A stretch of DNA of 64,000 nt, taken from contig OX597827.1 in assembly GCA_951406725.2 (NCBI GenBank), forward strand, positions 79,484,001 to 79,548,000. The letters are read 5' to 3'. The DNA is from Octopus vulgaris. Lineage: Eukaryota. Below, one piece after another: positions 12,327-60,292 of the stretch (positions are counted from its first letter, which is position 1; each line of letters opens with the position of its first letter). A program made the position numbers and the translations under genes. A model generated the notes under the pieces. The model did not search any database, was not told the origin of the DNA, and was given only the letters and a program-made list of their open reading frames with translations.

Positions 12327-12460
12327 CTTCATTGTTTAATCCATTGTTCCCACGACATGAAACTACAGTCATGCATCTTGTAGTGTTCCAGAGCAACTAT
12401 TGCTGCAGTAGCACAATAACAGTTGTATGTTGATGAACTGCTGTTGTGAGTCAGATGATA
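12327..12460 (-). promoter_or_regulatory. Conserved promoter / non-coding first exon of gene A
   Basis: TGACTCA at 12447-12453; ends GGATTAAACAATGAAG|GTAAGA; homologous blocks precede every large exon. Left end is the donor; the TSS is unknown. Confidence 0.7.
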
Positions 12461-13610
12461 GGAAGTAGAACTCTTAGATGAGAATTGTGGTTGTATGTGT
12501 TTAAGCATATCCATAGCTGTGTGTTTTCTTTGTTTGTATGAGTATATTCCTCCAAAATTTAATACTGAAAATGTGTTACTTCTGACAAGAAAACCTATTG
12601 AGCAGGAAATGTTATGAAATTATAATCATATAACGAATTTATATTATTCATTTTTAATACTTTGTTGAGATTGGTGGCAATGGCCTTGAAGAATTATTAG
12701 TATATTCGATAAAATGCCTTGCAGCATTTACTTACAGTTTTTTTCTTTCTAAGTTCAAATCTTGCCAAAGTTGATTTGTCTTTCATCCTGCATAGGCCTG
12801 TCAAGTCTAGGTTTGATTTAATCATCTATATCCTTCCCACCAAATTTGAAACTGTGCCTATGTTAGAAATCATCATTTTACTATTAAAAAGAGTTTATTT
12901 TCATGTTAAAAATTTAGTAAAAGTCTATATAAGAATTTTTGTAATGAAATAATAATTTCAAATCTTAAATAATTTTGTTTAAGTTTTAGTTGTTGCAAAA
13001 AAAAATAATAAATAATCGGTTATATGGCATTGCAATGTCACACAGAAAGGGAGAAGAGAAGAGGGGGAGATTAGTGGGGTGGTGAAAAGTGAGAAGGATT
13101 TTCAATGCTACTGCATGTGTAATTAGCCCTTTCTCTTTTGATGTCATTACTGTTTGAGACCGTAGTAATTCTCTCTAAATATAGCTGCATAAAATTCGAG
13201 GATTTGGCTAGAGAAAGAGAAATGGGCTTTAGTGATATTTTTGAAGAAAGATGGTTATAACTAAGGAAGTGAAACTAGGTTATCATGTATTTTGCACCGT
13301 AAAGACATCTCTGCTTGATTGCTTGTAGAAAATATAAATTCTTGAAATGAAAATGGTAGTCAGTGTGAAAGATATATTAATATTTGTTTTTATCAATGCT
13401 GCAAAGGCTTCAATAAGACTAACATCAGTTTTATGACTTCTACATAAATTTCCGAAATCTATTCAAATATCATAATAAATATATATCTAATAATTATGAA
13501 TACATTTAAATATTTTTAGTGAAATACTAAATTATTTGTTGGTTTGTTCTATGTGTTCTGAGAAGTAAATATTATTTATTGTTATGAGTGTAAAGTAAAT
13601 ACAATGTACA

Positions 13611-13690
13611 TCATACAGGCTCTAAATAGGTTTCTTGTTCTTGTTTACATTTTGGTGTTGGAGGTATATTTGGGTGATAGTTGCTGTATT
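13611..13690 (-). CDS. Pcdh: Protocadherin B terminal coding exon (80 bp)
   Basis: ttttgcag|AATAC; phase 1 matches the upstream exon; (E)YSNYHPNIPPTPKCKQEQETYLEPV*; spliced product 879 aa. Confidence 0.88.
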
Positions 13691-14008
13691 CTGCAAAATA
13701 TATAAATATTAAAGTGATATTAGACAATGTAAGCACCAATATGAAAGAGGAAATAAGGAAATTGATGCACTGATAGTATTTGTTTGTAATGAACTTGGAA
13801 ACATGTTTATTTTCTGATTGGATTTGTTTAATAGTTTTGTAAAGATTTGTATGCTTTATAATAATTTCTCAGTATGTTATTTGTTACAAAACGATAACAA
13901 AAAACTATTGTATTTATAGTAATAAAGTATTTTTTATCATTCAATTCAATTTAACTTAGTTTTTTAAAAACATCTTCATAAGAATTTTTGATTTATTTTT
14001 ATAATTAC

Positions 14009-14168
14009 CTGATATACCAGATACTTGATGTGTAATGTCACCATCACTCCACCCACGGTTCTGTTCCTTATGTGAGGGTAGAGTGCCATTCAAGTTATTT
14101 GCTGTGATAATACTATCATTATAACATTTTTGTTCAGCTCGGTCCTCTACCATATCTTTATTATAATT
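14009..14168 (-). CDS. Pcdh: Protocadherin B cytoplasmic exon (160 bp)
   Basis: tttgtcag|AATTAT...TATCAG|gtaatt; NYNKDMVEDRAEQKCYNDSIITANNLNGTLPSHKEQNRGWSDGDITHQVSGIS (inside ORF 13956..14225). Confidence 0.9.
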
Positions 14169-16829: not shown

Positions 16830-19229
16830 CTGAGGAAGTGATGGTAATCTTCTGTGTGTTGTTGCGAATTTCCATCCATTGGCTGATTGTTCCATCTCTG
16901 GATAATATGGACTTTTGGGGTTTATTGACTGAAGATTTCTGTTAAATATCTCTTCAGCATTCTGAGTTATTGCAACAGGATTGTTAGTCTGATACAGAAT
17001 TTGTCTCATTTCAGTCTGAGAGAGAAATTTTGGATTATCTTTTGTTGTAGGTGAATTATTAATGTGATTAATACATTTGAAAACACACATTGTTATTGAC
17101 ACTACAACAGCCACAGATAGTATTACAGCTGCTGCTACAATAATAATTATCCAAGTCATATTCAGGTTGTTACCAGACTGTGAGTGGACAGTAGTCAACA
17201 TTGGAGATGTATCATTACTAACAAACAGTGTTAGTATGATAGCAGTTGTTGCTGATTGAACTGGAGTACCACCGTCTTTCACTGTAAACTGCAGTTCATA
17301 TGTTCCTGCATCATTTTGGTAAACTGTGCGAGAGAAAGATAACACACCAGTGTGTGAGTTCACTGTAAACAGGTTTTTATCATTGGATCTAAGTATTCCA
17401 TACGTGAGGAAAGCATTGTTTCCAGTGTCTTTGTCAGTTGCTTTCAGAATTGTGATGTCCTTCTTACTGTGTGGATGGTAGTGGACATCGAGATTGTAAG
17501 GGTCATTATTAGGAAAGATGAAATAAGGTGCATTATCATTTTTATCTAAAATCTCTATAAGAATATTGGCAGTGTTATTCAGAGAAGGCATTCCATTGTC
17601 TTTGACTAATACCTGTAAATTATAGATGTCTTTCACTTCCCGATCTATTGGTTGTGATGTAGAAATAAATCCATATTTTGTCAGTTGGAAAGGAATGTTA
17701 TCATTGTTGTTATCATTGATGATAGAATATGTAAGTTGGCCTCCATCTCCAAGATCAGGGTCCGTAGCATTGATGAAGCCAATAGGGAAGTCAACTTTCT
17801 GGTTTTCATAGGTGAGGAATTGGAATGTCTCTTTGGTAAAATGTGGTTCTACATCATTGACATCAGTTACTTTGACAGAGAACTGTTTCTTAGTCTTTAA
17901 TGGAGGTGATCCCATGTCATGACATACAATAGAAACAATATAATGATCTATAGTTTCTCTGTCAAGAGGTTCTTTGACCAATATTTTATATTCTTTAGAA
18001 CCCATATTAGAAAGCTGGAACATTTTATGATGAATATTACATTTTATTTGTCCATTACGTCCACTGTCGGTGTCAATGACCATAACATAAGCTATAAAAC
18101 TACCAATTTTACTTCCTTCTGAAATAGCAGTAGAAGTTTTTGTTAGTGGAGATACAAAATCTATATTTATTGTTGGTGCATTATTCTGATTGTTAATTAT
18201 ATTAATAATTAATATTGTTGTAGAACTTAAAGATGGTTTTCCACCATCTCGGGCTTCAATGTATAGTTGGTATTTACTTTCTTTATTACTTAAGAAATTA
18301 TTATTAAGGAAAATTTCTCCAGATTTGCTCTTCAATTTGAAATGTTTTCTGGCATATTTATTTGTATTTCTATGTAAATAGTAAGTAACATTCCCATTTT
18401 GGCCAGAATCTAAATCTGTTGCTGATAAAACAAAAACAGGAGAAGATTTGTGATGTGTATCACTGATGGAAATATTATATGATTTCTCAGTAAACACTGG
18501 TTGGTTATCATTGACATCTGTAACTGAGATTTCTATCTTCAAAGAACCTTCTTTTTGTGGAGAGCCACCATCTTTAGCCATCAACAGTAACATATAAGTG
18601 TCTTTTAATTCTCTGTCTAACATTTCTTCTAGGGTTATTTTAAGTAAATTTATTCCATCAAACCCTTTAAATATGGAGAGTGAGAATTTCTTACTTTTGT
18701 CTTTGAGTTTATATGTAATCTTAGAATTTGGAAGACTAATGTCTTTATCAACAGCATTTGGTATTGATTTTGTTGATCCTTTTGCTTCAGTTTCACCAAA
18801 CTCTATTTTAATTAGATCCTCTGAGAACTCTGGTGAATGGTCATTGATATCTTCTATTAATATATTTATCTTTAATATTTTTATGAACGTTTCTGCTTTC
18901 CTCACTGCAACCTTAAGAATCCTTGAACATTCCTTGTTGTATGTACATAGAGTTTCAGCATCCAGTGTTTGAGTAGTGTAGAGTTTTCCTGAGTTGGTGA
19001 CATTAAATAAGTGAGAACCACTTTCCACTGTCCTTTGTAGTTGTGTAAATGTAATGAGAGCGCGTTGCTCATGTTTGAGAGGGTGTGATAAGTTGGAGTC
19101 AACAGCAATGTCTCCTATATAGGTGTGAGGACTGTCTTCTTCATTGATATAGTATGAAATATCTACAGCTATGACTGCTTTTATCCAAACATGCAAAATG
19201 TAAAATTGTAAAATATTATTTCCAATCAT
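16830..19229 (-). CDS. Pcdh: Protocadherin B, large exon
   Basis: 809-aa ORF, six EC repeats + TM; donor CAG|GTAAGT at 16830/16829; acceptor catttaag| at 19262/19261. Confidence 0.97.
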
Positions 19230-22219
19230 TGTTTTATTTCATTGTTCTTGAATCCATATTACTTAAATGAAAGAAGAAAACATTGAATTTAATCATAGAA
19301 TTTTTGTTGAAATTTACATTTAAGTATTGATGTTGCTTTAAAGCTTGTCATATTTCAATTATCACCATATGTATGAATTTTGATAAATTTTTAACAAGGT
19401 AAAATAGGCAATAAATTGAGGTAAAACTTAAAACAAAAGGAGTAATGAATCAGCAGATTTTTTTCACAAGACGTCTTCCCAGGGTACAGATTTCATACTT
19501 AACATTTTGCCAATAGTTTAAATCATAACATATCTCACAAAAATGAATAACTGGCTGCCCAAATTGAATTTCCATGTCTTGTCAATTTATGTTATTTATG
19601 TTTTCAATAGAAATAGTATTTTTTAGACTGCTGTATCTTGCAGAATATTAGACATTCATCAAAGAGAAAACAAGCACTACACAATAGAGTTGTTACATGG
19701 GAGAGATTTAATTGACAATGAGATGCCAGTAAGGCTACATTGGAGGGAAGAATGATAAAAAAACTGAATAAACTCAGCAAAGAAACTGCATTTGTTGCTC
19801 ATGTTATACAGTGGTGCAATCAACTTTTTTTCACTCAAGAAATTACTGCTGCACAGATTTTTGACAAAACATAAAAGCATTGCTAACTTTCAAATTGCCA
19901 TTGAGTGAGTTCAATTATTGCCCCAAAATTGTACAATTCAATTGTAATTACTGAAATAATGTTACAAGTTGACTTTATTAACTTGTTTCATACAAAAATA
20001 TTTCACAGTTAGTCTGTGAGAATGCTTATAGGCAGTCACTATACATGATGTGCGTAAGTAAATTTCTTTCAAGAATACACCTACTCTGTTTGATATGTTT
20101 AATGTCTTGAATACAAGATAATAACCATTGCAGCACTCGTCACTACTGGGGTTGAAACTAGATTTGCCTAACACCATGCATCCAAGTGATCTGGGTATAG
20201 AAACTTTAGGAGCAATGCAGATTCATATCATTGGCCTGAATGTTTATTTACTTCTGAGAAGCACTTTCTGTAAAGAATTGCATTATTTTCCTTTCTTTCT
20301 TTCACACTATATATGCAGCTGATTAACCAATATCATATATCTAAAGCAAAAAAACCATGGTCCAATTCTCTCATTACTTCTATCTTATCCACATCGATGT
20401 GGACATGTACTTACACTTTGCCCCACCCTGACACTTAAATTGTGCTTGGAAGCAAAGTCCCCTGAATCGGCAAAATATTTAGATATTCATGCGAATTCAA
20501 ATGACTCCAAATATCAATAGTGGTCACCCAATGTATTCGTCTGGTGAGTTGTAAGAAATTCATGTGTTTGCTTTTAATTATGCCAGGTTTTAAAAAAAGT
20601 AGTGCTGAAACATAAGCTGTGGAAAAACTGGTGTCTTATCTGTATAAATTAGGTGTAACATTTGAAAACCACAGAGTTATTTCCCTTGTTATCTCTGTAT
20701 ATTTCCTAACACTTCCATTCATTTATACTTTATACTGAAATATTTGAGGTGATTTAACTAATACAGCTCAGTATTATTGCCATTGTTTGCTGAAATTGAA
20801 ATACCTTTATATAATGTGGTTGTTCTGCTGAACAAATCTTCAATGCATGATATGTGTGCATCCTATGATGAACTGCAAAGCATATATTGCAGGTTTTGTA
20901 AGAGTTTTTTTTTTTTTTTTAGGAATATGAAGACAAATTGGGTGGGTGGAAGGACTTATGTTGGACTGGCATACTTTCTTTTTGATTTAAGGAACTGTTT
21001 AGAGACTATTGTAGCAGTTGCTATATTTTCTTTAAATGCTGGGATAGTGAGTACTTGGAAATATGATTACTAATCTGATGACATTGGTTTTTATATCCCC
21101 TGCATGTAGGATGAAAGACATATAGTCAATACACAGTAAAAATGGTAGATTATTAAGAATCCTTGGTTGCTAACATTTGCTTGTGTAATAAAAACATAGA
21201 CTAAATGCTTTACAGCATATAATTTTGTGTCACTGGATTAAATCAACGTTTTTAAAGGAAAATAAACTAACAGCAATAATATAATTGCAGTATAGGTGTT
21301 TATAAGCCATTTAAAAACACGCAAAATCCGTTAGATTCACTTCAACATTTAAATATAATTTGTGAAAATATTTTCATCACTTTGAACCTGTAACCTGTTC
21401 ACTGACAAAATTCTGTACAACAATCTTAGATCAAGTCATTTGCTATGCAAGTACATCTCTGTAATAATATAATTATATCAGTTTAATCATCTATATAGGT
21501 TGTTGTTGTTTTTTAACAAGAGGAGAATAATTTTCTGAAAGTAATTGATTCATATTATATTTTAACAAAATATTTATAGTGATGTATTTCTTTAGATATT
21601 TAAGTTTGTATCATTAGAGATATGCATAATGATAATTTCTATATCAGTCAAGAATCCCTCCTCACCAAGTTATAGTGAATAGTAACTGGGAACTGAGACG
21701 TCAATAGCTTTAAGGAAATTGATTACAAATTAAATAACTGCATTAATGAAGAAGAAAGGAAGAAATAACAGATTCTTCTCACAGAAAAATCTGAGGCTTA
21801 GATGAACATGTACTATTGTATATCTAAATTTTTTACTAGCCGCTAAATATAAATTGAGTGACATCTCTGTGCTTAATTATCAACATTTGTGAAAATTAAT
21901 AAAACAATTTTCAGTTGTCCAAATTTACAAAATAATTTTATAAATAACATTAGATAAGTAAACAAATATAAATTTTCTAATCAGAATTTGTGCAATGGCA
22001 CTGCTGGAAGTATTTTCATTGAAGTGAATATACTGCAGTAACTATCTTCATTAAATAAATGGCTGCAATAATTGTTTTTGGTAATGCAATAGTTAATGGC
22101 AAGTTTCTTTATATAATTCTCATAACAGACTTTCTAGATTTTATCAGGTTATTATACCTCACTATCAACTATATACTACGAAAATATTAATTGAGAATAT
22201 GAACTATAAAGCAGCTTAC

Positions 22220-22340
22220 CTTCATTACTTAATCCTTTGTTTGGGCTTCTTATAGAAGACATCTGTTCTTGCGTAGTGTTCCAGTATAACTGCTGCTATA
22301 GTAGCATCTTGTTAGTGCAGATTCGTGAGTCATAGAAGAT
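22220..22340 (-). promoter_or_regulatory. Conserved promoter / non-coding first exon of gene B
   Basis: TGACTCA at 22326-22332; CTACTATAGCAGCAGTT; ends GGATTAAGTAATGAAG|GTAAGC. Confidence 0.7.
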
Positions 22341-23095
22341 GCATACACAGCATTTAATATATTCAGATGTATTTCAGGGGTGTTAAATTTTTTATAAATT
22401 TTACAATATGTAAATCTAATTTTATGTAAAGTATGTAACATATTTAAATATATTTTAATTATCATATTATATCTTGAACACGCATCTTTTATATTTTTCT
22501 ATGAAATATGCATAGATTATATATTGCATTTATATACATGCATACACACTGAGTTCTGCAGTATATAAACTGTCAATTTCTAATGACAATTCCACATATA
22601 TTGAACTACAAAATATCCTGTTTAATTTCATGTTACTGAAAGTTTTCTGTTATTCTATTGATGTTATTTCATTATTTAGTAACATTTTTTCAAAAATAGA
22701 TCAAAGAAAGTAAACACCTTAGGGTAATCTTTTTCTCCTATTTTCTGAGTTCAAATTCAGCTCTTGTTTTTTTCAAAATTACTAAAATAAGTACATTAAA
22801 GTAATAATATACAAGTGCCAGTTGTAATAAACTATTCTGTTATTTAATTTGATGATTTAGTTTTGTTTTACACTTACAGCATAGGTTTAAAGAAAATAAT
22901 TGCAAAACGGTATGTTTTCAGGATATGGTTTTGAATGAATTAGTTTATATGTGCTAAATAATATATTATAATTATATAATCAAATTAGAAATAACAATTT
23001 AATTCAATTGCAGTTTTGATGCTTAAACTTTAAAAAAGTACTATTAATATTTTTCACAGCAATGAATTGGAGGTTTGTTTCTTTTGAGTTCACAA

Positions 23096-23175
23096 TTACA
23101 CTGGTGCTAGATATGTATCTTGTTCATGATCACTTTTTGCTGTGGGGGGTATGTTTGGTTTGTAGTTACTGTATT
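23096..23175 (-). CDS. Pcdh: Protocadherin C terminal coding exon (80 bp)
   Basis: tcttccag|AATAC; (E)YSNYKPNIPPTAKSDHEQDTYLAPV*; spliced product 877 aa. Confidence 0.88.
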
Positions 23176-24721: not shown

Positions 24722-27127
24722 CTGTGGAACTGGTGGAAGTCTCCTGGGTGTTGTTGAGAATTTCCATTCATTGGCTAATTGTTCCATCTCTGGATAATAT
24801 GAGCTTTTGGGGTTTATTGACTGAAGATTTCTGCTAAATATATCTTCTGCATTCCGAGTTATTGCAACAGGATTATTAGTCTGATACAGAATTTGTCTCA
24901 TTTCAGTCTGAGAGAGAAATTTTGGATTATTTTTTTCTCCAGATGAATTATTGAAGTGATTAATACATTTGAAAACACACAGTGTTATTGACACTACAAC
25001 AGCCACAGATAGTATTACAGCTGCTGCTACAATGATAATTATCCAAGTCATATTCAGATTGTTATCAGACTGTGAGTGGATAGCAGTCAACATTGGAGAT
25101 GTATCATTACTAACAAACAGTGTTAGTATGATAGCAGTTGTTGCTGATTGAACTGATGTACCACCGTCTTTCACTATAAACTGCAGCTCATATGTTCCTG
25201 CATCATTTTGGTAAACTGTGCGAGAGAAAGATAACACACCAGTGTGTGAGTTCACTGTAAACAGGTTTTTATCATTGGATCTCAGTATTCCATATGTGAG
25301 GAAAGCATTGTTTCCAGTGTCTTTGTCAGATGCTTTCAGAATTGTGATGTCCTTCTTACTGTGTGGATGGTAGTGGACATCTAGATTGTAAGGGTCATTA
25401 TTAGGAAACGTAAAATATGGAGCATTATCATTTTTATCTAGAATCTCAATAAGAATGTTAGCAGTGTTATTCAGAGAAGGTGTTCCATTGTCTTTGACTA
25501 ATACCTGTAAATTATAGATGTCTTTCACTTCCCGATCTATTGGTTGTGATGTAGAAATGAATCCATATTTTGTCAGTTGGAAAGGAATGTTATCATTGTT
25601 GTTATCATTGATGATAGAATATGTAAGTTGGCCTCCATCTCCAAGATCAGGGTCTGTAGCATTGATGAAGCCAATAGGGAAGTCAACTTTCTGGTTTTCA
25701 TAGGTGAGGAATTGGAATGTCTCTTTGGTAAAATGTGGTTCTACATCATTGACATCAGTTACTTTGACAGAGAACTGTTTCTTAGTCTTTAATGGAGGTG
25801 ATCCCATGTCATGACATACAATAGAAACAACATAATGGTCTATAGTTTCTCTGTCAAGAGGTTGTTTCACCAATATTTTATATTCTTTAGAACCCATATT
25901 AGAAAGTTGAAACATTTTATGATGAATATTACATTTTATTTGTCCATTAGGTCCACTATCAGTGTCAGTAACCATAACATAAGCTATAAAGCTTCCAATT
26001 TTACTTGCTTCTGAAACAGCAGTAGAGCTCTCTGTTAAAGGTATTACAAAATCTATATTTATTGCTGGAGCATTATTTTGATTGCTAATAACATTAATAA
26101 TCAGCATTGTCATGGAGCTTAATGAAGGATTTCCACCATCCCTAGCTTCAATATATAACTGATATTTACTTTCTTTATTTCTAAAGAAATTATCATTGAT
26201 GTAGATTTCTCCACTTTTAGAATTTAATTTGAACTTATTTTTGGTATGTTTATTTGTATTTCTATGTAAATAGTAAGTAATATGTCCATTTTGACCAGAG
26301 TCTAAATCTGTAGCTGATATATGAAACACAGGGGAAGATATGTGATGTGTATCACTGATGGTAGTATTATATGATTTTTGTTTAAAAAGTGGTTGATTAT
26401 CATTGACATCTATAACATGTATTTCAATATTCAGAATTCCTTCTTTTGGTGGAGAACCTCCATCCTTGGCCACCAACTGTAATGTATAAATGTTTTTAAA
26501 TTCTCTGTCTAATTTTTCCCCAAGTGTTATTTCCAGTAGGGTTACCTCATCAAATCCTTTAAACATAAGTAGCGAAAATTTATTACTTTTATCTATTAGT
26601 TTATATGTGATGTTAGAATTGAGAAGACCAATGTCTTTATCAACAGCATTTGGTATTGACTTTGTTGATCCTTTCCCTTCTGTTTCATAAAATTTGACTT
26701 TTAATTGGTTCGTTGGAAACTCTGGTTGATGATCATTAATATCTTCTATAATTATTTTTATCTTCAATATCTTTATAAATGTTTCTGCTTTCCTTACTGC
26801 TACTTTAACTACTTTGAAACATTCTTTCTTATATGTACAAAGTGATTCAGCATCTAATGTCTGAGTAGTGTAAAGTTTTCCCAAGTTGGTGATATTAAAT
26901 AAATTAGTTCCACTTGCAACTGAGCGTTGTAATTGTGTAAAAGTAATGAGAATGTGTTGTTGATGTGTGAGAGGGTGTGTTGTTAAGTTGGAATCGATTG
27001 CAATGTCTCCAATGTAGGTGTGAGGATTGTCTTCTTCATTGACATGGTATGTAATATCCACCATTACAACAGAGTACATCAATCCACAGATGATGTAAAA
27101 CTTTAGAATGTTGATTATCATCATCAT
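24722..27127 (-). CDS. Pcdh: Protocadherin C, large exon
   Basis: 806-aa ORF, six EC repeats + TM; donor CAG|GTATGT at 24722/24721; acceptor tttttag| at 27168/27167. Confidence 0.97.
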
Positions 27128-28999
27128 TGTAATTCATTATTATTCATGTACATATGTGTATTTAAACCTAAAAAAGAAATCCTTGTTGATTTAATTATAT
27201 TAACATATGTAAACATTTAAATCTGATAAATGAAATTTGTAGTTTGGGAAATTGCTTTAAAAACTTCTGATATTGTCATTGTAAACAAAAACTGAACAAA
27301 GTGGAATATGATCAGCAAGGTACTACCTCTGCTGACAACAAAGAATCTCTTTCTTGGAGTGAATGACAGGATGTATGATGCATGTGTATAAAATGCTGTT
27401 GCATGGAATGAGACACGGGCCTTGAAAGCAGGTGTAGAATATGAGAGGGAAGATTATGCTGACATGAGCATGTGATCCATCTAGAGTATGCTAGTTGTGT
27501 AAAGAATGCTATGCAAAGCACTCCATGGAGATGGAACCTGTGGAAGAAGGAAGCCAAAAACATGGGTCAAGATAGGGATGACAAATCTCAAGAAGCTGAA
27601 ACTTGTCACAATATATTGTAGCCATGTATCACATGCTACCATGGAAAGATGGATTAAAAGTGAATAATGATGGTGGCAGTGATAAAGATGTGATATATAA
27701 TATGTTCATGTGCATCTCTCCTAAGTGTAATGTTCATTTTAAGTTTCCACACACTACTTCCCTCCCTTTGTTACTTCTTCATCTATCATTCATCCCTCTC
27801 TTGCTAAAGTGTGTCCCTGCTATCACCCTATCTCTCACTCATCATGTGCCCTTGTGCTGAGGAATGGTATTGCATTAGTGGAAGAGTATCTACTCAATCC
27901 TCATTTAACATCACCACTTCTTTATTGTTAGCTGTCAATCTCACTTATTATTGATATCCATCACTCCCACTCACCTGCCAGCCTCAATCTTAATAACTCT
28001 TTCTCATATTACTTACATATCTTTCACTCATTGCTAACACCCATCACTCTTTCTTTGTCAAAACACTTCTCTCTCCACTTGCTGTCTCTCACTACCAACA
28101 ATCCCTCTTCTATTACTGTCTCCTTCCTATTAATCTTTTTCCATCCTACCATTTGTACTGTCACTATCCAATATCCTCCTCTCTCCCCCCCTCTCTCTCT
28201 TGTTTTACTATTTTCCTTATTGTCCTCCTACCTCTATGGCTCCGGTTCTCTTTCATTACTCTCTGATGAAGAAGGGAGTAAAAGCAAAGTTTAGAGGATT
28301 TTTCAGTCCTGCTGAGAATATGACAGCCCTGCTAGTGTTAGTGCTACATTAAAATGCACTTAGTATACTCTGTAAAATGGTTGGTAAGGGGATAGGCATC
28401 CAACCATAGAAATATACATGTCAAAAGAAAACAGAAATAAGACATGGTCCCCTGAATAAGAACAAACTCAGTCTGTGACAACCTTCCAACCCATGCTTGG
28501 CCTGAAAAAGATGATATAAAATGATGTTGATGTTGAACTCAGTGTAACCATCTGTTACTCTTCCTTTATAATTTTATGAAACTATGTATCCTCTCCTTTC
28601 CCACATCTAACCTACTGACTGTTTCCTCTCTTATGTTCATCTTCTTATATCTAGAGAGTTTGCTCTGGCACAACTATCTTTATCTTCTTCCTGGCAACTT
28701 CTACTCACCCTTATGCAATTTTGAGTAGCTATATGTCTCCTCTATAGCAAAACACATGTGCTTGTCTTGTTATCATACTTTAGTCTCTCAGCACTAGGCA
28801 TATACCCACCTTCTGCTTCTAAATACTACCCCATCCATCACTTAGTTATGAGGTCTTTACTCCTTGTCTGTACTTTTTATGATGACCTCACAAGAGCTGG
28901 TGTCATGAAAAATGCACGCAGTCCACACTGTAAAGAGGTTGGCATTAGGAAGAGCTTCCAGCCATAGAAACCTTGCCAAAGCTGACACTGAAGCCTCAG

Positions 29000-30404: not shown

Positions 30405-30471
30405 AATATTATATTATATTATATTATATTATACTATATTATATCATATAATATTATATTATATTATATAC

Positions 30472-30545
<74 letters not shown>
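30405..30545. repeat. (ATATT)n followed by (TA)n microsatellite
   Basis: Visible compound tandem repeat. Confidence 0.95.
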
Positions 30546-30943: not shown

Positions 30944-31075
30944 CTAAATTGTTTAATCCTTTGTTTGTGCCACTTTCAGAAGACATTGATTCTTCCATAC
31001 TGTTCCTGTATAACTGCTGCTATAGTAGGGTGACAATGGAAGTATCTTAATGGTGAAGAATGTGAGTCATAGTAG
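30944..31075 (-). promoter_or_regulatory. Conserved promoter / non-coding first exon of gene C
   Basis: TGACTCA at 31063-31069; CTACTATAGCAGCAGTT; ends GGATTAAACAATTTAG|GTAAGT. Confidence 0.7.
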
Positions 31076-31903: not shown

Positions 31904-31992
31904 CTATTTCTTGTATACTGGTTCAAGATATGTGTCTTGTTCATGTTCACCCTTTGGCATTGGTGGTATGTTTGGTGTGTAGTTACCATATT
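31904..31992 (-). CDS. Pcdh: Protocadherin D terminal coding exon (89 bp)
   Basis: tcttccag|AATAT; (E)YGNYTPNIPPMPKGEHEQDTYLEPVYKK*; spliced product 883 aa. Confidence 0.88.
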
Positions 31993-40623: not shown

Positions 40624-41749
40624 TATTATTCATGGATATACCTCAAAATCTAAAAAGAATATAAAAGAAATTGCTTGAATCAAACAGTCATTATACAGAA
40701 ATATTAATATGGAGAAAATATGTATACTAAAATCAAGTGTACGAAAATTTATCATGTAATATAATCAATAATATTTAGAAATGTTTGTAACATTATGAAA
40801 TAATGAAGTAAAATTTTGATAGTCTCATATGTGCCCGTGGCCAGTTTTCTGAATGAAGCAAAATCCATACTTGGTACAACATAGAAGTATATTCCATAAT
40901 TATAAAAAAAATTTAAATCATAGTAAATAAAATTATCTCTTCACATATATAAAGTGATTAGACTGAGAAATTATTGCCTCTATATCCAAAATTAGACATG
41001 ATAAGAGATTTTAACACATAAACTGTGCTATTTGCTTTTATGAAGTTTTTATGAAAGTTTTCTCATTATGAACTTATTCCTAAGATTGAAATTACTGAAT
41101 TACAGATTGTAAATAATGTAAAAGAAACACATTATTTTTCAAACACTATCATTGCATCTATTTATCATACTTAGCTGTTAAATGGAATTTGATGTTAGGT
41201 CACTTGTGGGTGCATCTGGCAATATCTAACCCAGTCCAACTTGTTTCATAATTAGGTTGTTGCCTACAGAGCTGTTAATTCCACCAAACTTGCATGGTGT
41301 GAAGGGTGATTTTGGATAAGCTGCAGGATGAATAACAAAACTTATCAAAGAGCAGGTAAACTTAGATAAGTCATTAGCCATCCAATAAAACATATATATA
41401 CAGGTTATATATGTGTATGTTAGTGAAATGTTCATATTTCATTCAAATGAAGCATGGAAGAAATAAGTAATCTTCATCTCCCCAGCATTAAAGTTGGCAG
41501 CAGCAGGCTAATGGGGCAACTTTGAGGTGGAAACATAAAGTCATACAGGATTAAAAGCTATGATGCAGAGTAAATATTGAAAACAGTTTTATGACCTGGA
41601 TATGCACAAAGTTTGATATCTTTTTTTCTCCTAAATATTTTGTTTTGATATTCAAAGTGAAATAATCTATGTAGTCACTTGGTCTCTTGAATGTTCTGCC
41701 AAGTCTCTTAACAATGTAACTAATAATATTAATAGTAATAATAATAATA

Positions 41750-46200: not shown

Positions 46201-46325
46201 CTACATTGTTTAATCCGTTGTGCTTCCTATAGAAGACATTATTGCATAGTGTTTCAGTGTAACTGCTGCTGTAGTAGTTTGACAAGGGCAGTATGTTGAT
46301 GGTGTAGATTTGTGAGTCATACAGA
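46201..46325 (-). promoter_or_regulatory. Conserved promoter / non-coding first exon of gene D
   Basis: TGACTCA at 46313-46319; CTACTACAGCAGCAGTT; ends GGATTAAACAATGTAG|GTAAGT. Confidence 0.7.
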
Positions 46326-47589
46326 GAGGCAACTATACTCTAAAGACATTTTTTCATCTGAGTATATTGGATTCACTTAAATTATTTTACACAATGATTA
46401 AAATATTGAATAATGAATTTTGCTAAAGTATTTTCAGTTTATTTCAAACTGCATTAATATGTGTGCATGTATACACACACACACACACTTATGCACGTAA
46501 CTATATGTCAAAAGGCATACAATAGATATGGATCAGCTTAGAGTTCAGCAGTCTGAATTCCTAAAATCCAACATCCTAACTGTGTTGCTACATATTCCAC
46601 TGTTAGAAGGAATGGATAGCAACACAATTATAACTTAAATTGATATATTCCATACTTATTTGTTAACATCAGTTTAGTACATATGCATAATGACTATCAC
46701 TACATCTGTTTGTTACTGAATCCTTGATACGGGAGTAAAAGACTACATTGAGTTATTTTCTTTCTTCTCAGTTGTACTTTTGCTTATGAAATCTCTGGAA
46801 AGCTACTCATTTATAGAGGAGTACTATTGACTAACTTCTTGTGTTTCACTTAATTATATTTTATATGCATATTTCTGTAAACTATTTATAAATTTTTTGA
46901 TGTAATAAATCTCTCATTTTATCTTTGTGTTTGTATGCACACACGCACACACACATGCACATAACTAATGAATTATCTCTTGTATGCAGATGCTTATAAC
47001 ACTGATTACGTATTTATGCACTGTGTACTGCAGTATGTAAAATATTAATTTCTAAGTCCAGTAACAATTTCATTATACATACTACAGTGGATTAGTCCTC
47101 TATGAAATACCTATCTAGATTACATGAAAAATAACATTGCTGGAAACTATCATTTTAATAATTTTAAAATATTGATCTGAATGTTCAAAATAGTAGAGTT
47201 AGTGTCAGAAATGGTAAATTGTCAAAGTGTATGTTTTCAAGTAGTTTTGTTTCTATATTTTTTAATTGCACAGTATATTGCTAAAATATCTGTTATTAAT
47301 AAACAACTAATGAGGATTTAATGTTATAAAGTTATCTTTGAAGATTTTGACCAAGTGCATGATCAAAGTTTATCAATTATGTGTCAACATTTCTAATTTA
47401 CATATTTACATATTTACATATTTTTTATATATAAACTTGGATTGATTAGTTCTTGCTATGTATCTGCTGGTTAGATCAATTTTATTTTAGAAGAGTCTCT
47501 TAATTATATTCCATTTCTGGAGTCAAATTGCGAGAGAAATTTAGTTATCCCTAGTACTAAGAATTTGAGTCATGTTAGTCCTGTGATTA

Positions 47590-47678
47590 TTATTTCTTAT
47601 ATATTGGTTCAAGATAAGTGTCTTGTTCTTGTCCACTCTTTGGCATTGGAGGTATGTTTGGTGTATAATTACTATATT
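47590..47678 (-). CDS. Pcdh: Protocadherin E terminal exon (89 bp; downstream of the frameshift)
   Basis: ctttcag|AATAT; (E)YSNYTPNIPPMPKSGQEQDTYLEPIYKK*. Confidence 0.8.
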
Positions 47679-52193: not shown

Positions 52194-54606
52194 CTGTGGA
52201 ACTGGTGGAAGCTTTCTGGGTGTTGTTGAGTAGTTCCATTCATTGGTCAACTGGTCTATTTCTGGATAGTATGAACATTTAGGGTTTATTGACTGAAGAT
52301 TTCTGCTAAATATCTCTTCTGCATTTCTCGTTATTGCAACAGGATTGTTTGTCTGATACAGAATTTGTCTCATTTCAGTCCTCGATAGAAATTTTGGATT
52401 ATCTTTTTCTCCAGATGAATTATTGAAGTGATTAATACATTTGAAAACACATAGTTATTGACACTACAACAGCCACAGATAGTATTACAGCTGCTGCTAC
52501 AATGATAATTATCCAAGTCATATTCAGGTTGTTATCAGACTGTGAGTGGATAGCAGTCAACATTGGAGATGTATCGTTACTAACAAACAGTGTTAGTATG
52601 ATAGCAGTTGTTGCTGATTGAACTGGAGTACCACCGTCTTTCACTATAAACTGCAGCTCATATGTTCCTGCATCATTTTGGTAAACTGTGCGAGAGAAAG
52701 ATAACACACCAGTGTGTGAGTTCACTGTAAACAGGTTTTTATCATTGGATCTCAGTATTCCATATGTGAGGAAAGCATTGTTTCCAGTGTCTTTGTCAGA
52801 TGCTTTCAGAATTGTGATGTCCTTCTTACTGTGTGGATGGTAGTGGACATCGAGATTGTAAGGGTCATTATTAGGAAAGATAAAATACGGAGCATTGTCA
52901 TTTTTATCCAGAATCTCTATAAGAATATTGGCAGTATTATTCAGAGAAGGTGTTCCATTGTCTTTGACTAATACCTGTAAATTATAGATGTCTTTCACTT
53001 CTCGATCTATTGGTTGTGATGTAGAAATGAATCCATATTTTGTCAGTTGGAAAGGAATGTTATCATTGTTGTTATCATTGATGATAGAATATGTAAGTTG
53101 GCCTCCATCTCCAAGATCAGGGTCTGTAGCATTGATGAAGCCAATAGGGAAGTTAACTTTCTGGTTTTCATAGGTGAGGAATTGGAATGTCTCTTTGGTA
53201 AAATGTGGTTCTACATCATTGACATCAGTTACTTTGACAGAGAACTGTTTCTTAGTCTTTAATGGAGGTGATCCCATGTCATGACATACAATAGAAACAA
53301 CATAATGGTCTATAGTTTCTCTGTCAAGAGGTTCTTTCACCAATATTTTATATTCTTTAGAACCCATATTAGAAAGCTGGAACATTTTATGGTGAATATT
53401 ACATTTAATTTGTCCATTAGGCCCATTATCAGTGTCAATGACCATAACGTAAGCTATAAAACTCCCAATTTTACTTCCTTCTGAAATAGCAGTAGAAGTC
53501 TTTGTTAAAGGTGATATAAAATCTATATTTATTGCTGGAGCATTATTTTGATTGTTAATTACATTTACAATCAACGTTGACATGGAGCTTAATGAAGGAT
53601 TTCCACCATCCCTAGCTTCAACGTATAACTGGTATTTACTTTCCTTATTTCTAAAGAAATTATCATTGATGAAGATTTCTCCAGATTTATGATTTAATTT
53701 GAAATACTTTTTATCATATTCATTTGTATTTCTATGTAAAAAATAATTAATATTTCCATTTTGACCAGAATCTAAATCTGTTGCTGATAAAACAAAAACA
53801 GGAGAAGATATATGATGTGTGTCACTGATGGTGGTATTATATAATTTTTGTGTAAACGTAGGTCTGTTATCATTGACATCAATAACAGATATTTCAATGT
53901 CCAGAATACCTTCTTTTGGTGGAGAACCCCCATCTCTAGCGATCAACTGTAACATATATGTGTCTTTTAATTCTCTATCTAACATCCCTTCTAGAATTAT
54001 TTTAAGTAAATTTATTCCATCAGATTCTTTAAATATGGAGAGCGAGAATTTTTTGCTTTTATCTTTGAGTTTATATATTATCTTAGAATTTGGAAGACTA
54101 ATGTCTTTATCAACAGCATTTGGTATTGATTTTGTTGATCCTTTCACATCTGTTTCATAGAATTTGATTTTTATTTTGTTTGATGGGAACTCTGGTTGAT
54201 GATCATTAATATCTTCTATAATTATTTTAATGTTTAATATCTTTAGAAATGTTTCCTCTTTCCTTACTGCTACTTTAACAGTTCTAGAGCATTCTTTCTT
54301 GTAAACACAAAGTTTTTCAGCATCCAATGTTTGAGTAGTGTATAGTTTTCCTAAGCTTGTGACATTAAATAAGTGAGAACCACTTGATACTGTTCTCTGT
54401 AGTTGTGTAAATGTAATGAGTGTGAGCTGTTGATGTGTAAGAGGATTTGATAGGTTAGAGTTAGCTGCAATATCTCCAATGTATGTGTGTGGACTGTCTT
54501 CTTCATTGACATGGTAAATGTAGTCTATCGACATGACAGAATACATTAGTCCATAGAAAAGGTAAAACTGCAAAGTATTGCTTGTCATCTCATTATTGTA
54601 ATTCAT
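52194..54606 (-). pseudogene. Pcdh: Protocadherin E, large exon with a 2-bp deletion after the TM (truncated 724-aa product or pseudogene)
   Basis: ORF 52432..54606 ends ITMCFQMY* versus ITMCVFKCINH in paralogs (ATGTGTTTTC vs ATGTGTGTTTTC). The rest of the exon continues in ORF 52074..52373 to the donor CAG|GTACCT at 52194/52193. Length 2413 = 2415 (gene D) - 2. Confidence 0.85.
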
Positions 54607-55734
54607 TATTATTCATGGATATACCTCAAAATCTAAAAAGAATATAAAAGGCATTACTTGAATCAAACAGTCATTATACACAAATATTAATATGGAGAAA
54701 ATATGTATACTAAAATCAAGTGTACAACATTTATCATGTAATATAATCAATAATATTTAGAAATGTTTGTAACATTATGAAATAATGAAGTAAAATTTTG
54801 ATAGTCTCATATGTGCCTGTGGCCAGTTTTCTGAATGAAGCAAAATCCATACTTGGTACAACATAGAAGTATATTCCATAATTATAAAAAAAATTTAAAT
54901 CATAGTAAATAAAATTATCTCTTCACATATATGAAGTGATTAGAATGAGAATGCATTGCCTCTATATCCAAAATTAGACATGATAAGAGATTTTAACACA
55001 TAAACTGTGCTATTTGCTTTTATGAAGTTTTTATGAAAGTTTTCTCATTATGAACTTATTCCTAAGATTGAAATTACTGAATTACAGATTATAAATAATG
55101 TAAAAGAAACACATTATTTTTCAAACACTATCATTGCATCTATTTATCATACTTAGCTGTTAAATGGAATTTGATGTTAGGTCACTTGTGGGTGCATCTG
55201 GCAATATCTAACCCAGTCCACCTTGTTTCATAATTAGGTTGTTGGCTACAAAGCTGTTAATTCCACCAAACTTGCATGGTGTGAAGGGTGATTTTGGATA
55301 AGCTGCAGGATGAATAACAAAACTTATCAAAGAGCAGGTAAACTTAGATAAGTCATTAGCCATCCAATAAAACATATATATGCAGGTTATATATGTGTAT
55401 GTTAGTGGAATGTTCATATTTCATTCAAATGAAGCATGGAAGAAATAAGTAATCTTCATCTCCCCAGCATTAAAGTTGGCAGCAGCAGGCTAATGGGGCA
55501 ACTTTGAGGTGGAAACATAAAGTCATACAGGATTAAAAGCTATGATGCAGAGTAAATATTGAAAAAAGTTTTATGACCTGGATATGCACAAAGTTTGATA
55601 ACTTTTTCTCACCTAAATATTTTGTGTTGATATTCAAAGTGAAATAATCTATGTAGTCACTTGGTCTCTTGAATGTTCTGTCAAGTCTCTTAACAATATA
55701 ACTAATAATATTAATAGTAATAATAATGATAATG

Positions 55735-57605
55735 AAATTATTGTGTATAGTGTTCAGGTGAATTACAAGGTGTATGTACAGTACATAGAATTATATACAA
55801 AAATCAGAGAAGTGAACAGTGTAAGAGTCATGATGTACATTTGTGCATACGTATGGAGTGGTGGGGATATCAGGTGTAGCATTGGCATGGTTCAGGAAGT
55901 ATGGAGTTCTTAAAGGATGCAATGTCTTGGCAGCTAACAGTTGATGCAGGTAATTTGTTCCATGCTTCAGAAACTCTGAGTTTGAAAAAATGTTTCCAAA
56001 AGTCATGGGAGCTGTGCTGTTTTCTGACTTTGTACACACACCAATTTGTGTTAGATACATAGAGCTCAAAAAGGTGCTCAAGGTGGTTGTTGGCATGATG
56101 GGTAATAATATTGTGGGAGTGTACTAGGTCAGTTGCCAGACATCGGAGCTTTAATGTATCTATGCCCAGGGAAGCAAGGAATTCAGAGTATGGTCAATGT
56201 CTGATGGAAGGCAATTGCTTGGTAGCACATCTCTGAACATTTTCCAGGAGGTCAATGTTCTGACGAAGATAGGGGTTCCAGACTAGTGATGCAAATTCCA
56301 AGTGTGGCCACACCATAGCCATATACAGTCTTAAACAGATAGCTGGAGAGCAGCTGACAAACGTCTTGCTGAGTGATGCCAAGACACCCTCAGCCTTCTT
56401 GTCAATTTTAGAGATGTGCTTCGCCCAGTGCAAAATGCTGCTGACTAATGCCCAGGTCACATTCACAAGAAGACTTCTTGATATTAGTGTTGTAGAGAAA
56501 GTATGTGGACGTTGGGTTTTTTCCTCCAAAAATGCATGGTGGAACACTTTTCCACAGCCAGTTTGAGTTGCTAGTCCATGATCCATTGTTGCGTTGTGTC
56601 AGGTCTGATTGCATGAAAGATCTATAGTGCCCAGGACCTGTCCTTTTTATCTCAAGGTACAGCCTGATGTCATCTGCATATTTCAGCATGGTGGCATTCT
56701 TTAAGTTGCCTTTAATATGTCAATAACGTATGTAACAAACAAAAGGGGACCAAGAACAGATCTCTGCAGTACACTAGATGTCACGTTATAGGGGGAAGAA
56801 TGCTGCCCTAGAACTGTGACTACCTCTTTTCAGCTGAGGATGAAGGAGTCCAACCAGTTAAAAAGATCATCTTTCACACCAATTGCAGAGAGTTTTGCCA
56901 TAAGTCTTTTGTGTGGCACAGAATTAAAAGCTTTAGCAATGTCATTGTAAACAATATCCACCCATGTGCCACCATTAGGGATCTGGGTGATATCTTTAAA
57001 AAAAATGATAAATTGATCACAGCAGCTGGAGTTAGGGATAAATCCAAATTGCGTGGGCTGGATAAGGCTGTGAGAATTCCAGAAGTTCCAGAGTGCTTCT
57101 CTAACATAGGATTCCATCAGTTTGGCAATGCAGTTAGCAAGACTGACTGGATGATAGTTGACAGGTGACGTTCTGTCACCCTTTTTGAACAGAGGAATGA
57201 TACTGCTCCGGAGTAGCACCATTGTTAAGACATAACTGAAAGAAGAGTGAAAGCTGGTGCAGAAGAAAGTACCCACTACGTTTGAGAAGCAGGTACATAA
57301 CACCATGAAGACCAGGAGAGGCATAGTTGCGCTTATTCTTAAGGTGACGTTGCAGTATTGCAGGTGCAAATTCCATAATTGTTATGGAATTTTATATCAG
57401 AGGTGGTGGAGATGGTACGTTTTGGTTTTCGACAATACAAATACCTGCATAGCATTCAGCAATGAGTTCTATGCATTCTTTGGGATCGTCAGTAATCTGG
57501 CTTGTTTGGAGATTGCGAAGAGGACCAACTGGAGAGTGAGGTCTCTGCTTTGAACGCACATATTTCCAGAACACCTTACTTCAGGATTGGTTGCTATACA
57601 CTTCT
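55735..57605 (-). mobile_element. CR1-clade LINE remnant (duplicate of 41750-43630)
   Basis: Same RT motifs (DIAKAFNSVPHKRL, YADD) at the same position in the duplicated unit. Confidence 0.9.
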
Positions 57606-60167
57606 TAAATTCTAAATTTCAAGGCAGAGGAAATTGTATGAAGAGGAAACCTGAAACAACTTCAATTGATTCCAACTTAGTGCTCAGTTTTCGTTTTTTT
57701 CTCTAAGAATGTCACCTGTGTCTGTATTCAGATTAAAGCTATGCAAAATGTTTTTTTCATTGTCTTATATTAATCATCAACTTACTTTATTTCCCTTTTA
57801 TTATATTGTTCATTTGACAGAAATCATGAAGAAAAACAACTTTGAACCACTCACCCCGTGAGAAGATACCCTGTTGGGTTGGCTATTAATCTTTTTAAAA
57901 TAAATTTCGCAGTCTTTGTGGTTTAAGTTAATCAGAAAAAAAAAAAATTAAATATTACTTTCTAATGACAGTTAATATATTTTCACTAAAGCTTTTAAGA
58001 TAACAGAGTTGTTCCCCCTTTCAATCTTGTTATGTTTTATCTTGTTAGTCTGTCGATGCATGGAAGAAATATGTATCTCCAATTGCACATTTTATTGAAA
58101 TATTTCACTGACTTCTAATCGATGTGGCCCTGCATTATTCACTTATAATCTGATTGTTTAAGTAGTATTATATTGGCAACTGACTGATTTCTGTTGACAA
58201 AGATTTGCCTTCCAGGAGGACAGTAATTCCAAATAAAATATGATTCAAAATAGAGGAGAAATTTAGCCTTTAACATTGGCTAACCATTCTAGTTCTGGTG
58301 ATACAGTCAACACATCCGGTTCACACCGTAAGACTTACATAAAACTGGAAATTTTTTTTTGTTACTGTGTGTGATAGATTACAAGTGAGAGATGAATAAT
58401 GAGATTTCTTCAATCCATGCCCACATGGAAAAATAGATGTAAAATTACAAAAATGATGAGGAATGATAATTTTAATCCTTATTAAAATTCTGGTGTTAAA
58501 TGATAAATTAATTTTCCATTTAATATGTACTTTTGAGATCATATGAAATATAAATCTATGTCTCTAGTTTTATGATTGTTATTTTCGACTAGTTCTGATC
58601 AGCTTTGCTTGAGAAGACACTCAACAAAAGTGTAGTCAATAAACTAAATGAAGACTGCAGATTTAGATGCCCATACATACTAAACTGCCGTCTGTTGTGA
58701 TATCATACTATGTTATGTAGACTGTTTGAAATAAAAGTGGATTTCAGAGTATGTTTGAATTTTTGTACAGTTGTTGGCAATATGAAGCATGTACAAAAGT
58801 AAAATCTACATAACAAGTAAATTTTTCATTTTGTGGAAGAGTTGAGTTTGCTACCAGAAATGGCATAGACCTTGATGGCTGTCTTAAATAGCTGGAAAAA
58901 TAATCTTATTTCTTTTACTTATATTTGACTGAAAATTTGTGGTGTGTCTGTTTATGGTGTTTTAGTTATGATTGTGATCGTTTTTCTATGTGAGTTGAAA
59001 ACATTACTCAGAAGATTCTAATATTAGTAGAATTATTTACACAAACAAGAAAAATGGTGTTCAGATGTTTAACAATAGGTAGCCTCATGTTTCCTGATCA
59101 AACTCTTCCAATCTTGATAAAGTAGCAATAATAGAATAGAAATAATTTGTAATTAGGGATAATTTTGAGGTCATTTATACATATTATATATATATATATA
59201 TATATAAAGAATTGTTAGTTATATTTGCTTATCATCATTATTTATTAAAAATGGGATAAAAAATAACTTGCATTTACTGCAAATGACGATTTTTACTTCG
59301 TTACACTTGAAAATATAGAATTTTGAATTTGCTTATGTAAGTGGCCAAAATTAAACTGACTAAAAATATAATAAATTAAAATATCAAGTGAATGCTTGTC
59401 TTTGTACAATGAAGTGCAATGATTCACTGAGTGTATGAACATATATTTTCATTTATATATATAGTTATTTTAATTATATATATTTACAGTGATACAGATG
59501 TTTATATAATTGATTCTGTTTTCTTGATAAGGATAAATTTTAAAGATATCAAAATAAGTTTAGAAAATATGTATTTTGTAATTAAGAATAAAAGAAATAA
59601 CTGAATAATATTTTTAGTTTTAAACATGAATGTCTTCCTTGAGGTTATTTGTAAAATTAATAAAAACTTGCAATAAGGAATCAAAACACAGACTCTGAAT
59701 TTGTTGACAGAGAAACTAAATTCTAAAATGAAATTATATTCTTTGAGACTAGCAGTCCATGCATATTTTGTTATGCATTTGATTCAATATTCTATTTAAA
59801 TAGAAAGAAATAAGACATTCTCAAAGGTTAATAAATATTGCCTATTTAAACTGATTTATAGAAATATTTGAATTAATAATTTTAATGAAATATAGTAATA
59901 TGTATGAAAAATATGAAGTAAAATACAGTTAACTGACAGTCTAGTATTTACATAATGATTGCTGTTAAATATATCTACTTTCACATAGTAACTATCCTAC
60001 TTCAATAGCAATAGCTTTTGGTAATGGCTACATAATTCCATGGCTTCCTATTTCCTTGCTTGAATATATTATCATTATTAAATATATTAGTATCCATTTC
60101 TCATGCTTCAATATCCTAAAATATGAACAGAATATCAAATGAGAAATTGCAATGTAATATGACTTAC

Positions 60168-60292
60168 CTACATTGTTTAATCCATTGTGCTTCCAATAGA
60201 AGACATTATTGCATAGTGTTTCAGTGTCACTGCTGCTGTAGTAGTTTGACAAGGGCAGTATGTTGATGGTGTAGATTTGTGAGTCATACAGA
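60168..60292 (-). promoter_or_regulatory. Conserved promoter / non-coding first exon of gene E
   Basis: TGACTCA at 60280-60286; ends GGATTAAACAATGTAG|GTAAGT; duplicate of 46201-46325. Confidence 0.7.

Follow-up and report, generated by a model that had tools for sequence, protein, structure and literature searches.

The clustered protocadherins (PCDHs) of octopods and squid are described as head-to-tail arrays of multi-exon genes that arose by whole-gene duplication and show signs of gene conversion (Albertin 2022, PMC9068888; Jiang 2022, PMC9795677). The array descriptions in these two papers give no promoter, non-coding first exon or common motif, and in the main text of PMC9795677 the words 'promoter', 'exon' and 'upstream' are absent. 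A literature search turned up no work on the promoters or leader exons of cephalopod protocadherins; the leader exon may already be visible in supplements, older work or public gene models. Octopus neurons have about 150-170 protocadherin genes to choose among, and a 2023 review treats the cluster as enigmatic and expects vertebrate-like control (PMC10658181). In vertebrates, clustered Pcdh promoters have in common the conserved sequence element (CSE), which includes a CGCT box, and antisense RNA across the promoter serves as a control (PMC7811963).

We analysed a stretch of 64,000 nt of Octopus vulgaris DNA (the window), in which a promoter and leader-exon block ahead of every protocadherin had been predicted, by analogy with the vertebrate CSE. 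The analogy stands for the layout, one repeated non-coding element per tandem gene, and transcription across the promoter is a known control in vertebrates. There the RNA is antisense; any such transcription in the octopus array would run in the sense direction, out of the neighbouring gene. It fails for the CGCT box, which is absent from both strands of 5/5 blocks plus 60 nt upstream (the blocks hold 0-2 CpG each), and for the constant exons, which are shared in the vertebrate alpha and gamma clusters, whereas the octopus genes have their own 3' exons. The vertebrate element also lies a short distance from the start codon, whereas the octopus block is 3.0-5.6 kb away behind an intron (2958-5551 nt). 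CTCF binding and a stochastic, methylation-linked choice of promoter also belong to the vertebrate system.

Results

The window contains five neighbouring genes, A-E, that are clustered octopod protocadherins, proteins of nerve-cell adhesion; the predicted identity agrees with the PF00028 and PF08266 domains of genes A and B (cadherin-repeat ectodomain whose first repeat is of protocadherin type) and with the closest protein matches, an O. vulgaris protocadherin (85%) and an Argonauta sequence (76%). The exons concerned are as follows.

5279..7709, minus strand: gene A large exon, with signal peptide, cadherin repeats and membrane segment (acceptor 7709)
16830..19261, minus strand: gene B large exon (acceptor 19261)
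24722..27167, minus strand: gene C large exon (acceptor 27167)
38209..40649, minus strand: gene D large exon (acceptor 40649)
52194..54632, minus strand: gene E large exon (early frame end: 724 aa, stop at 52434)
1688-1847, minus strand: gene A exon 3
14009..14168, minus strand: gene B exon 3, its own cytoplasmic exon
23643-23790, minus strand: gene C exon 3
32355-32502, minus strand: gene D exon 3
48018-48165, minus strand: gene E exon 3
61845-61992, minus strand: exon 3 of the upstream gene F

Genes B, C, D, E and F are each followed by exons 3 and 4; for gene A, exon 3 alone is present and exon 4 does not lie within the window. The joint between exons 3 and 4 of gene C (23175/23643) was found in RNA contigs of runs X7 and X8. 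The genes each form a full unit of four exons, 3' exons included, and they are whole-gene duplicates, in the same head-to-tail arrangement with signs of conversion as in the published octopod and squid array descriptions. All five genes share 94-100% identity over the rear half of the large exon, and the acceptor lies 22, 32, 40, 26 and 26 nt ahead of the ATG (A-E), the predicted 22-40 nt. The spacers had been described as otherwise poorly alignable, and this has to be corrected: the last two coding exons of the preceding gene, both conserved, lie inside each of them, and a weaker common patch is found in B-E.

The predicted block is present once per protocadherin, in five non-coding copies of 113-127 bp that start with an invariant TGACTCAC and end at a splice donor.

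12327..12453, minus strand: block A (TGACTCAC at 12453-12446; donor with its last exon base at 12327; forms the 3' end of an exon that is joined to gene A by splicing)
22220..22332, minus strand: block B (14-nt deletion; donor 22220)
30944..31069, minus strand: block C (donor 30944)
46201..46319, minus strand: block D (donor 46201)
60168..60286, minus strand: block E, a recent duplicate of D (donor 60168)

The donors read AG/GTAAG, with the last exon base exactly at 12327, 22220, 30944, 46201 and 60168 on the minus strand, and the end of TGACTCA lies 120, 106, 119, 112 and 112 nt from the donor in blocks A-E. The coordinates and distances of the original prediction (copies of about 120 bp, with an invariant TGACTCA 106-120 nt before a consensus donor) are thus confirmed, save that copy E carries AGTG where AGTT had been given. 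Blocks D and E are identical at all but 3 of 119 positions and are, as proposed, recent duplicates, which leaves four independent copies. The spacings inside the block vary by 1, 14 and 8 nt and the copies therefore have no common reading frame, in keeping with the view that indels break its frames and that it is non-coding. A search of the window with a block profile gave five strong matches and no other under an E value of 0.9, and leave-one-out profiles recovered each omitted copy at 5e-13 or better. Depth in the block bins of the DNA-like run X20 was 13, compared with 30,037 at a true repeat (likeness at least 85%), and with five matches only in the window the block does not have the character of a dispersed repeat. 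An Rfam search of the block gave no match, and a metagenome scan returned three distant cadherin loci (26-42%), none of which carries the block. Two further roles for the block were considered. A conserved upstream peptide was rejected, since frames and lengths vary; the 140 nt next to the donor hold 2-6 upstream ATGs per block, and TGACTCAC is itself preceded by A, making ATG, in B-E and not in block A. A role of the invariant CTACTRYAG as an acceptor, with TGACTCAC as the branch site, is not supported, as spliced contigs read straight through it; such splicing may at most occur as a minor form.

Conservation of the block is close to that of coding sequence. Across the four independent copies, 57/113 columns (50%) are invariant in the block and 53% in coding exon 3, compared with 7-23% in 20 non-coding 120-nt windows, which were placed at fixed offsets and whose percentages are lower bounds, and with at most 13% in 60 shuffles. 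The edges are sharp, with an onset at TGACTCAC and an end at the donor, in all four independent units. These comparisons support constraint on the block as non-coding sequence. Measured against four-fold synonymous sites of the variable part of the ectodomain, the difference is not significant (57/113 versus 20/56, Fisher p 0.074); an invariant run of 8 has a chance of 19% at the block's overall conservation and of 1.8% at the synonymous-site rate. The divergence pattern of the block is closer to that of the upstream gene's exon 3 than to that of its own ectodomain.

The sequence TGA(C/G)TCA is the AP-1/bZIP consensus, and this heptamer is perfect in 5/5 blocks. GTGAGTCA, which reads TGACTCAC on the gene strand, has five occurrences in the window, one per block; shuffles gave 2.01 +/- 1.34 occurrences and 3/100 reached five, but the copies are related and the comparison is hence no independent test. 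Among 19 shared 8-mers, TGACTCAC alone is in register across all four independent units. The same letters fit the initiator consensus BBCA+1BW (PMC5287114), with CTCACA matching in 4/5 blocks and block B one mismatch away, at a background of 1.5% per position. TGACTCAC would likely serve either as a bZIP site or as a mark of the start site. Stimulation is reported to raise three non-clustered PCDHs (PMC7465212), in a paper that contains neither 'promoter' nor 'AP-1', so it has no bearing on the predicted activity response. Other signals did not stand out. The central palindrome of the RFX X-box (RYYNYY N1-3 RRNRAC; PMC2375033) is one mismatch off in 4/5 blocks, and 235/300 random non-coding windows match equally well or better; a TATA box is matched equally well by 44% of background windows; and the CCAAT/ATTGG pair is absent upstream of 5/5 blocks.

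RNA contigs were compared over 12100-24690, a stretch that holds blocks A and B, with four of 24 listed runs, none of them recorded as RNA: X2, X7 and X8 were classed as RNA from their spliced contigs and X20 as DNA-like. Contig alignments break exactly at 12327 in 3/3 RNA-like runs, which come from three studies and carry two organism labels, and exactly at 22220 in one of the three (one contig of X7, with 141 further letters beyond), and the DNA-like run crosses both positions unspliced. The block donors are used in RNA, as predicted, at both positions checked. Beyond the donor, X2 record 1 shows 39 differences relative to gene B, precisely the number that gene A shows, and the offset puts the joint at 12327 to 7709, so that one RNA contig fixes both sides of this predicted junction. 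Over the five junctions predicted, both sides are fixed at 1/5 (A) and donor use at 2/5 (A and B, the two within the stretch compared). A paralogue contig that matches none of A, C, D and E (48 differences from B, as against 57, 90, 55 and 56) seems to connect a comparable block with its large exon, a link made by equal depth, and by arithmetic it has room for about 350 nt ahead.

Upstream of the donor, the contigs continue into the preceding gene. The block lies 764-1271 bp behind that gene's stop codon, in the stretches given here together with the weaker shared patch.

12327..13690, minus strand: gene B exon 4 to block A donor (acceptor 13690, stop 13613; one RNA contig)
22220..23175, minus strand: gene C exon 4 to block B donor (stop 23098; full cover only with the contigs of three runs pooled)
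30944..31992, minus strand: gene D exon 4 to block C donor (stop 31906)
46201..47678, minus strand: gene E exon 4 to block D donor (stop position 47592)
60168..61509, minus strand: upstream gene F exon 4 to block E donor (stop 61423)
22571..22689 (B), 31322-31441 (C) and 47019-47130 (D), minus strand: weaker shared patch, also in E (B-C 69% over 121 nt, E value 1e-11)

Over 12327..13690 (minus strand), a single unbroken RNA contig of 1364 nt covers gene B exon 4, the 3' region and block A and runs on into the gene A exon; short-read contigs merge overlapping transcripts, and a contig over two genes does not amount to a single transcript, nor a contig end to an RNA end. Measured from TGACTCAC, the contigs extend without a break over 290 to about 1240 nt upstream, as far as the previous gene's last exon, and TGACTCAC therefore lies in transcribed sequence; among the contigs listed there is no separate short leader. 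Since the contigs show no other exon between exon 4 and the donor, any start of the gene's own must fall within that stretch. In the bin just past donor A, coverage is fully accounted for by spliced contigs in X2 and X8. AATAAA is absent from the 956-nt gene C stretch (22220..23175), and no poly(A) hexamer holds a common position across the stretches. In B and C the patch is located 240-370 bp ahead of TGACTCAC and in D 700-810 bp ahead, a more than twofold variation, and it was not found before block A; it may be a further promoter or 3'-end signal. The junction falls 876-1389 nt beyond a stop codon, and a junction far behind a stop codon is expected to lead to nonsense-mediated decay.

Discussion

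We consider it probable that each protocadherin has a leader exon and promoter of its own, nested in its neighbour's tail, with leaky read-through from that neighbour. The layout, the conservation, the donor use at two genes and the continuity of the contigs are direct observations. The block would be the end of a non-coding exon that splicing joins to the large coding exon of the protocadherin behind it. It likely serves this following gene as a first exon of its own, and the compact promoter would be situated at TGACTCAC or slightly upstream, which would place it in the 0.8-1.3 kb past the previous gene's stop codon, inside the 3' UTR of that previous gene or next to it. Any polymerases passing the upstream gene's poly(A) signals would then run across the promoter, and their transcripts, spliced at the strong donor, would become read-through RNAs. 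The promoter, its start site, factor binding and the share of read-through are what we infer. Some octopus PCDHs are cell-type enriched and others ubiquitous (PMC9712504), and separate promoters are therefore favoured; the methods of the same paper mention PCDH read-through transcripts in the O. vulgaris annotation.

Such read-through would also be expected if the block were no promoter and simply closed the long last exon of the gene upstream, with transcription passing from gene to gene, downstream genes being expressed mainly from multi-gene RNAs and the motifs acting on RNA in splicing, re-initiation or 3'-end choice. We regard this as unlikely. It would account for the contig that unites gene B exon 4, the 1364 nt to the donor and the gene A exon, for the lack of AATAAA in gene C and of a common hexamer position, for the bin beyond donor A covered by spliced contigs alone, for a block history that follows the upstream exon 3 and for the annotated read-through; yet the contigs are merged from short reads, and decay is expected of RNAs with a junction so far past a stop codon. 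Fused two-gene proteins, made by skipping exon 4, are out of frame or meet a stop within 14 residues in 3/3 cases, and the consensus RNA fold of the block, also rejected as a candidate, has six weak pairs at -0.74 kcal/mol. Arabidopsis read-through RNAs are likewise spliced from behind the first gene's stop into the second gene, and their second ORFs are seldom translated (PMC9768141); unlike those described there, the octopus donor is repeated and conserved before every array gene and probably serves the second gene as its regular first-exon donor.

Just as doubtful, in our estimate, is a promoter further upstream, at the weaker shared patch, which would give a leader of at least 400 nt and make the block 5' UTR or a downstream element. 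The patch recurs in B-E, the X7 contig with the splice at 22220 has its first base inside it (22622, 290 nt before TGACTCAC) and the paralogue contig leaves about 350 nt; but no patch was found before block A, an X2 contig (22482-22814) crosses the patch, short-read contig ends are not RNA ends and the distance from patch to block varies more than twofold. We give still less credence to a real donor within an otherwise relic block, whose copies would resemble one another through recent duplication and gene conversion and in which no motif would be under selection. Conversion is strong, as the rear half of the large exon attests, and the conservation of the block does not significantly exceed that of synonymous sites; however, its flanks have decayed to near background while the block equals coding exon 3, the sharp edges recur in all four independent units, and the invariant run of 8 is improbable at the synonymous-site rate.

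If only the preferred reading, a promoter per gene in the neighbour's tail, is true, the block is a useful yet ordinary paralogue promoter. A daisy chain, in which transcribing one gene runs through and switches the neighbour's promoter on or off and spliced multi-gene RNAs are regular, seems rather unlikely; it would give octopus neurons a CTCF-independent means of combining protocadherins, which neural activity may tune via the candidate bZIP site, and would amount to an independent second way of solving the same wiring problem. The analysis supplies a defined 120-bp element per gene, its splice junction and the absence of the vertebrate CTCF box, which make promoter choice testable. The overlap of the block with the upstream gene's tail also means that 3'-biased single-cell counts and cluster gene models may mix neighbours.

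Each protocadherin gene is a full four-exon unit

The minus strand of the window carries five large cadherin-repeat exons (genes A–E, from low to high coordinates), and Pfam searches with A and B returned cadherin domains together with protocadherin-type first domains. Since the closest relatives of these genes are Octopus and Argonauta protocadherins (≤85% identity), the array belongs to an octopod cluster. The spacers between the genes, originally described as poorly alignable outside a single block, proved to contain two further conserved blocks, namely the upstream gene's exons 3 and 4. Adding these exons completes the proteins of B, C and D (877–883 residues), and the joint between exons 3 and 4 of gene C is present in the contigs (short-read assemblies) of two RNA-like runs; therefore each gene is a full four-exon unit, as already reported for cephalopods in passages of PMC9068888. 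Exon 3 is 160 nt long in A (1688–1847) and B (14009–14168) but 148 nt in C–F (F being the gene upstream of E), giving two tail types within one array. Relative to D, gene E (52194–54632) is missing two bases towards the end of its membrane segment, and its frame stops after 724 aa, at 52434, which would reflect a pseudogene, a truncated form or an assembly error. Intron 1 of D (42856–43407) and of E (56830–57381) contains reverse-transcriptase (LINE-like) fragments that were copied along with the duplicated unit (the Pfam match behind this call is to the E fragment only), and the introns of gene B hold high-copy repeats (14200–15040 and 20920–21760; depth up to 30,000 in a DNA-like run).

A conserved non-coding block precedes each large exon

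Only 764–1271 bp separate each upstream stop codon from a block that opens with TGACTCAC and ends in a splice donor; all five lie where the original prediction placed them.

Confirmed block donors, each block being named for its downstream gene
12327, minus strand, donor of block A
22220, minus strand, donor of block B
30944, minus strand, donor of block C
46201, minus strand, donor of block D
60168, minus strand, donor of block E

The window contains five copies of TGACTCAC, one per block and 106–120 nt before the donor, and a block profile search of the window returned these five only and recovered every left-out copy. An alignment of the four independent copies has 57 invariant columns out of 113; the share is 7–23% for 20 non-coding windows nearby and 53% for coding exon 3. 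Because spacings inside the block vary by 1, 14 and 8 nt it keeps no reading frame. Measured against the four-fold synonymous sites of the variable part of the ectodomain, of which 20 of 56 are invariant, the excess falls short of significance (p 0.074). Given the block's own conservation, eight invariant positions in a row would arise with a chance of 19% (1.8% at the synonymous rate). Overall, the block is under constraint relative to its flanks, but what sets TGACTCAC apart is mainly that it marks the conservation edge and that, of 19 shared 8-mers, it alone is in register. Readings of the blocks as X-box, TATA or twin-CCAAT elements failed against background, and searches for an RNA fold or an Rfam family in the block gave nothing. 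ATTAAA, a variant poly(A) hexamer, lies 14 nt before the donor in four of the five blocks (absent from B) and overlaps a conserved GGATTAA motif; splicing and 3'-end formation could compete here. A second TGACTCA stands directly behind the stop codons of E (47560–47566) and F (61388–61394) and is absent from the other units.

Two block donors are used in RNA

Three RNA-like runs (X2, X7 and X8), which come from three studies and carry two organism labels, were aligned together with a DNA-like run to 12100–24690, the stretch that contains blocks A and B. Contigs of all three RNA-like runs cease aligning at 12327, with 259, 318 and 448 letters beyond. A later part of X2 record 1 differs from gene B at 39 positions, exactly gene A's difference count there, and its offset gives the joint 12327->7709, the junction proposed originally. 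At donor B, one X7 contig ceases aligning at 22220 with 141 letters beyond. The DNA-like run is unspliced across both donors at a depth of ~13, against 30,037 at a true repeat nearby, so at 85% likeness the block is not a high-copy, dispersed repeat. A contig from a paralogue outside the window (48 differences from B, where A, C, D and E have 57, 90, 55 and 56) apparently links a comparable block with its own large exon.

X2 record 1 aligns unbroken between gene B's exon 4 acceptor (13690) and donor 12327; the X7 contig begins at 13557 and the X8 contig at 13525, both far upstream of TGACTCAC in block A. Before block B, the spliced contig begins at 22622 and the pooled contigs of the three runs cover 23175–22220. 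In X2 and X8, spliced contigs explain the cover of the bin directly past donor A. Since short-read contigs merge overlapping transcripts, the contigs upstream of TGACTCAC represent either 3' UTR/leader overlap or true read-through, which look alike here. The stretches behind the upstream genes contain no poly(A) hexamer at a shared position, and there is no AATAAA behind gene C. According to methods passages of the O. vulgaris brain atlas (PMC9712504), read-through transcripts fused PCDH gene models, which were mended by hand. Low contig cover was seen in intron 1 of gene B (19240–20919; X7 and X2) and in the bin just past its donor (21760–22179; X8), and most non-repeat bins of intron 2 had none; at the contig level, intron 1 cover may reflect slow splicing or run-on transcription.

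A nested promoter is the probable source of the leader exon

We consider it probable that each gene has its own first exon and a compact promoter lying at TGACTCAC or a short way ahead of it, inside the neighbour's tail, and that some read-through occurs. The block would form the end of the first exon and its strong donor would capture this read-through. Any start of the gene's own must fall between exon 4 and the donor, as the contigs contain no further exon in that stretch, and the differing cell-type expression patterns of octopus PCDH, described in parts of PMC9712504, speak for separate promoters. That the genes are expressed purely as a chain of two-gene RNAs is unlikely: the junction would sit 876–1389 nt behind a stop codon, a likely decay signal, and in Arabidopsis two-gene RNAs undergo degradation, with their second frames seldom translated (excerpts of PMC9768141). 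A start farther upstream of the block, at a weaker shared patch, is similarly unlikely, and that the block is a conversion relic is very unlikely. Coupling from neighbour to neighbour through nested promoters is a doubtful prospect.

By its letters, TGACTCAC could fit both an initiator and the AP-1/bZIP consensus. CTCACA matches the initiator consensus BBCA+1BW (given in part of PMC5287114) in four of the five blocks. The promoter/leader-exon interpretation is partly supported: it stood as regards a non-coding, non-repeat exon spliced from 12327 to 7709, but its analogy with the vertebrate protocadherin element holds for layout only: that element has a CTCF-bound CGCT box near the start codon (sections of PMC7811963), whereas the octopus blocks have no CGCT and 0–2 CpG and lie 3.0–5.6 kb from the coding exon. 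Among the articles listed by literature searches there was no study of cephalopod protocadherin promoters, and the examined passages of PMC6339937 and PMC7339444 describe none.

The duplicated unit straddles gene borders

The rear half of the large exon (~1000 nt) is 94–100% identical in all five genes and the front (~1100 nt) 71–86%, the D–E pair excepted; the step is sharp, synonymous sites included, and points to ongoing gene conversion. D and E are indeed recent duplicates: within the duplication the upstream gene's exon 3 is 100%, the block 97% and the ectodomain front 96% identical, whereas outside it the genes' own exon 3 is 83% and intron 2 60–67% identical, which would place the crossover within the homogenised part. 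The multiplying unit is upstream tail, block and downstream ectodomain front, keeping the leader with its own recognition domains and pressed against the neighbour's tail. The D/E unit (40629–50174 versus 54612–64000) is out of step with the gene borders: it combines the tail of one gene, the block and the ectodomain front of the gene that follows, so that a chimeric gene would result from each crossover.
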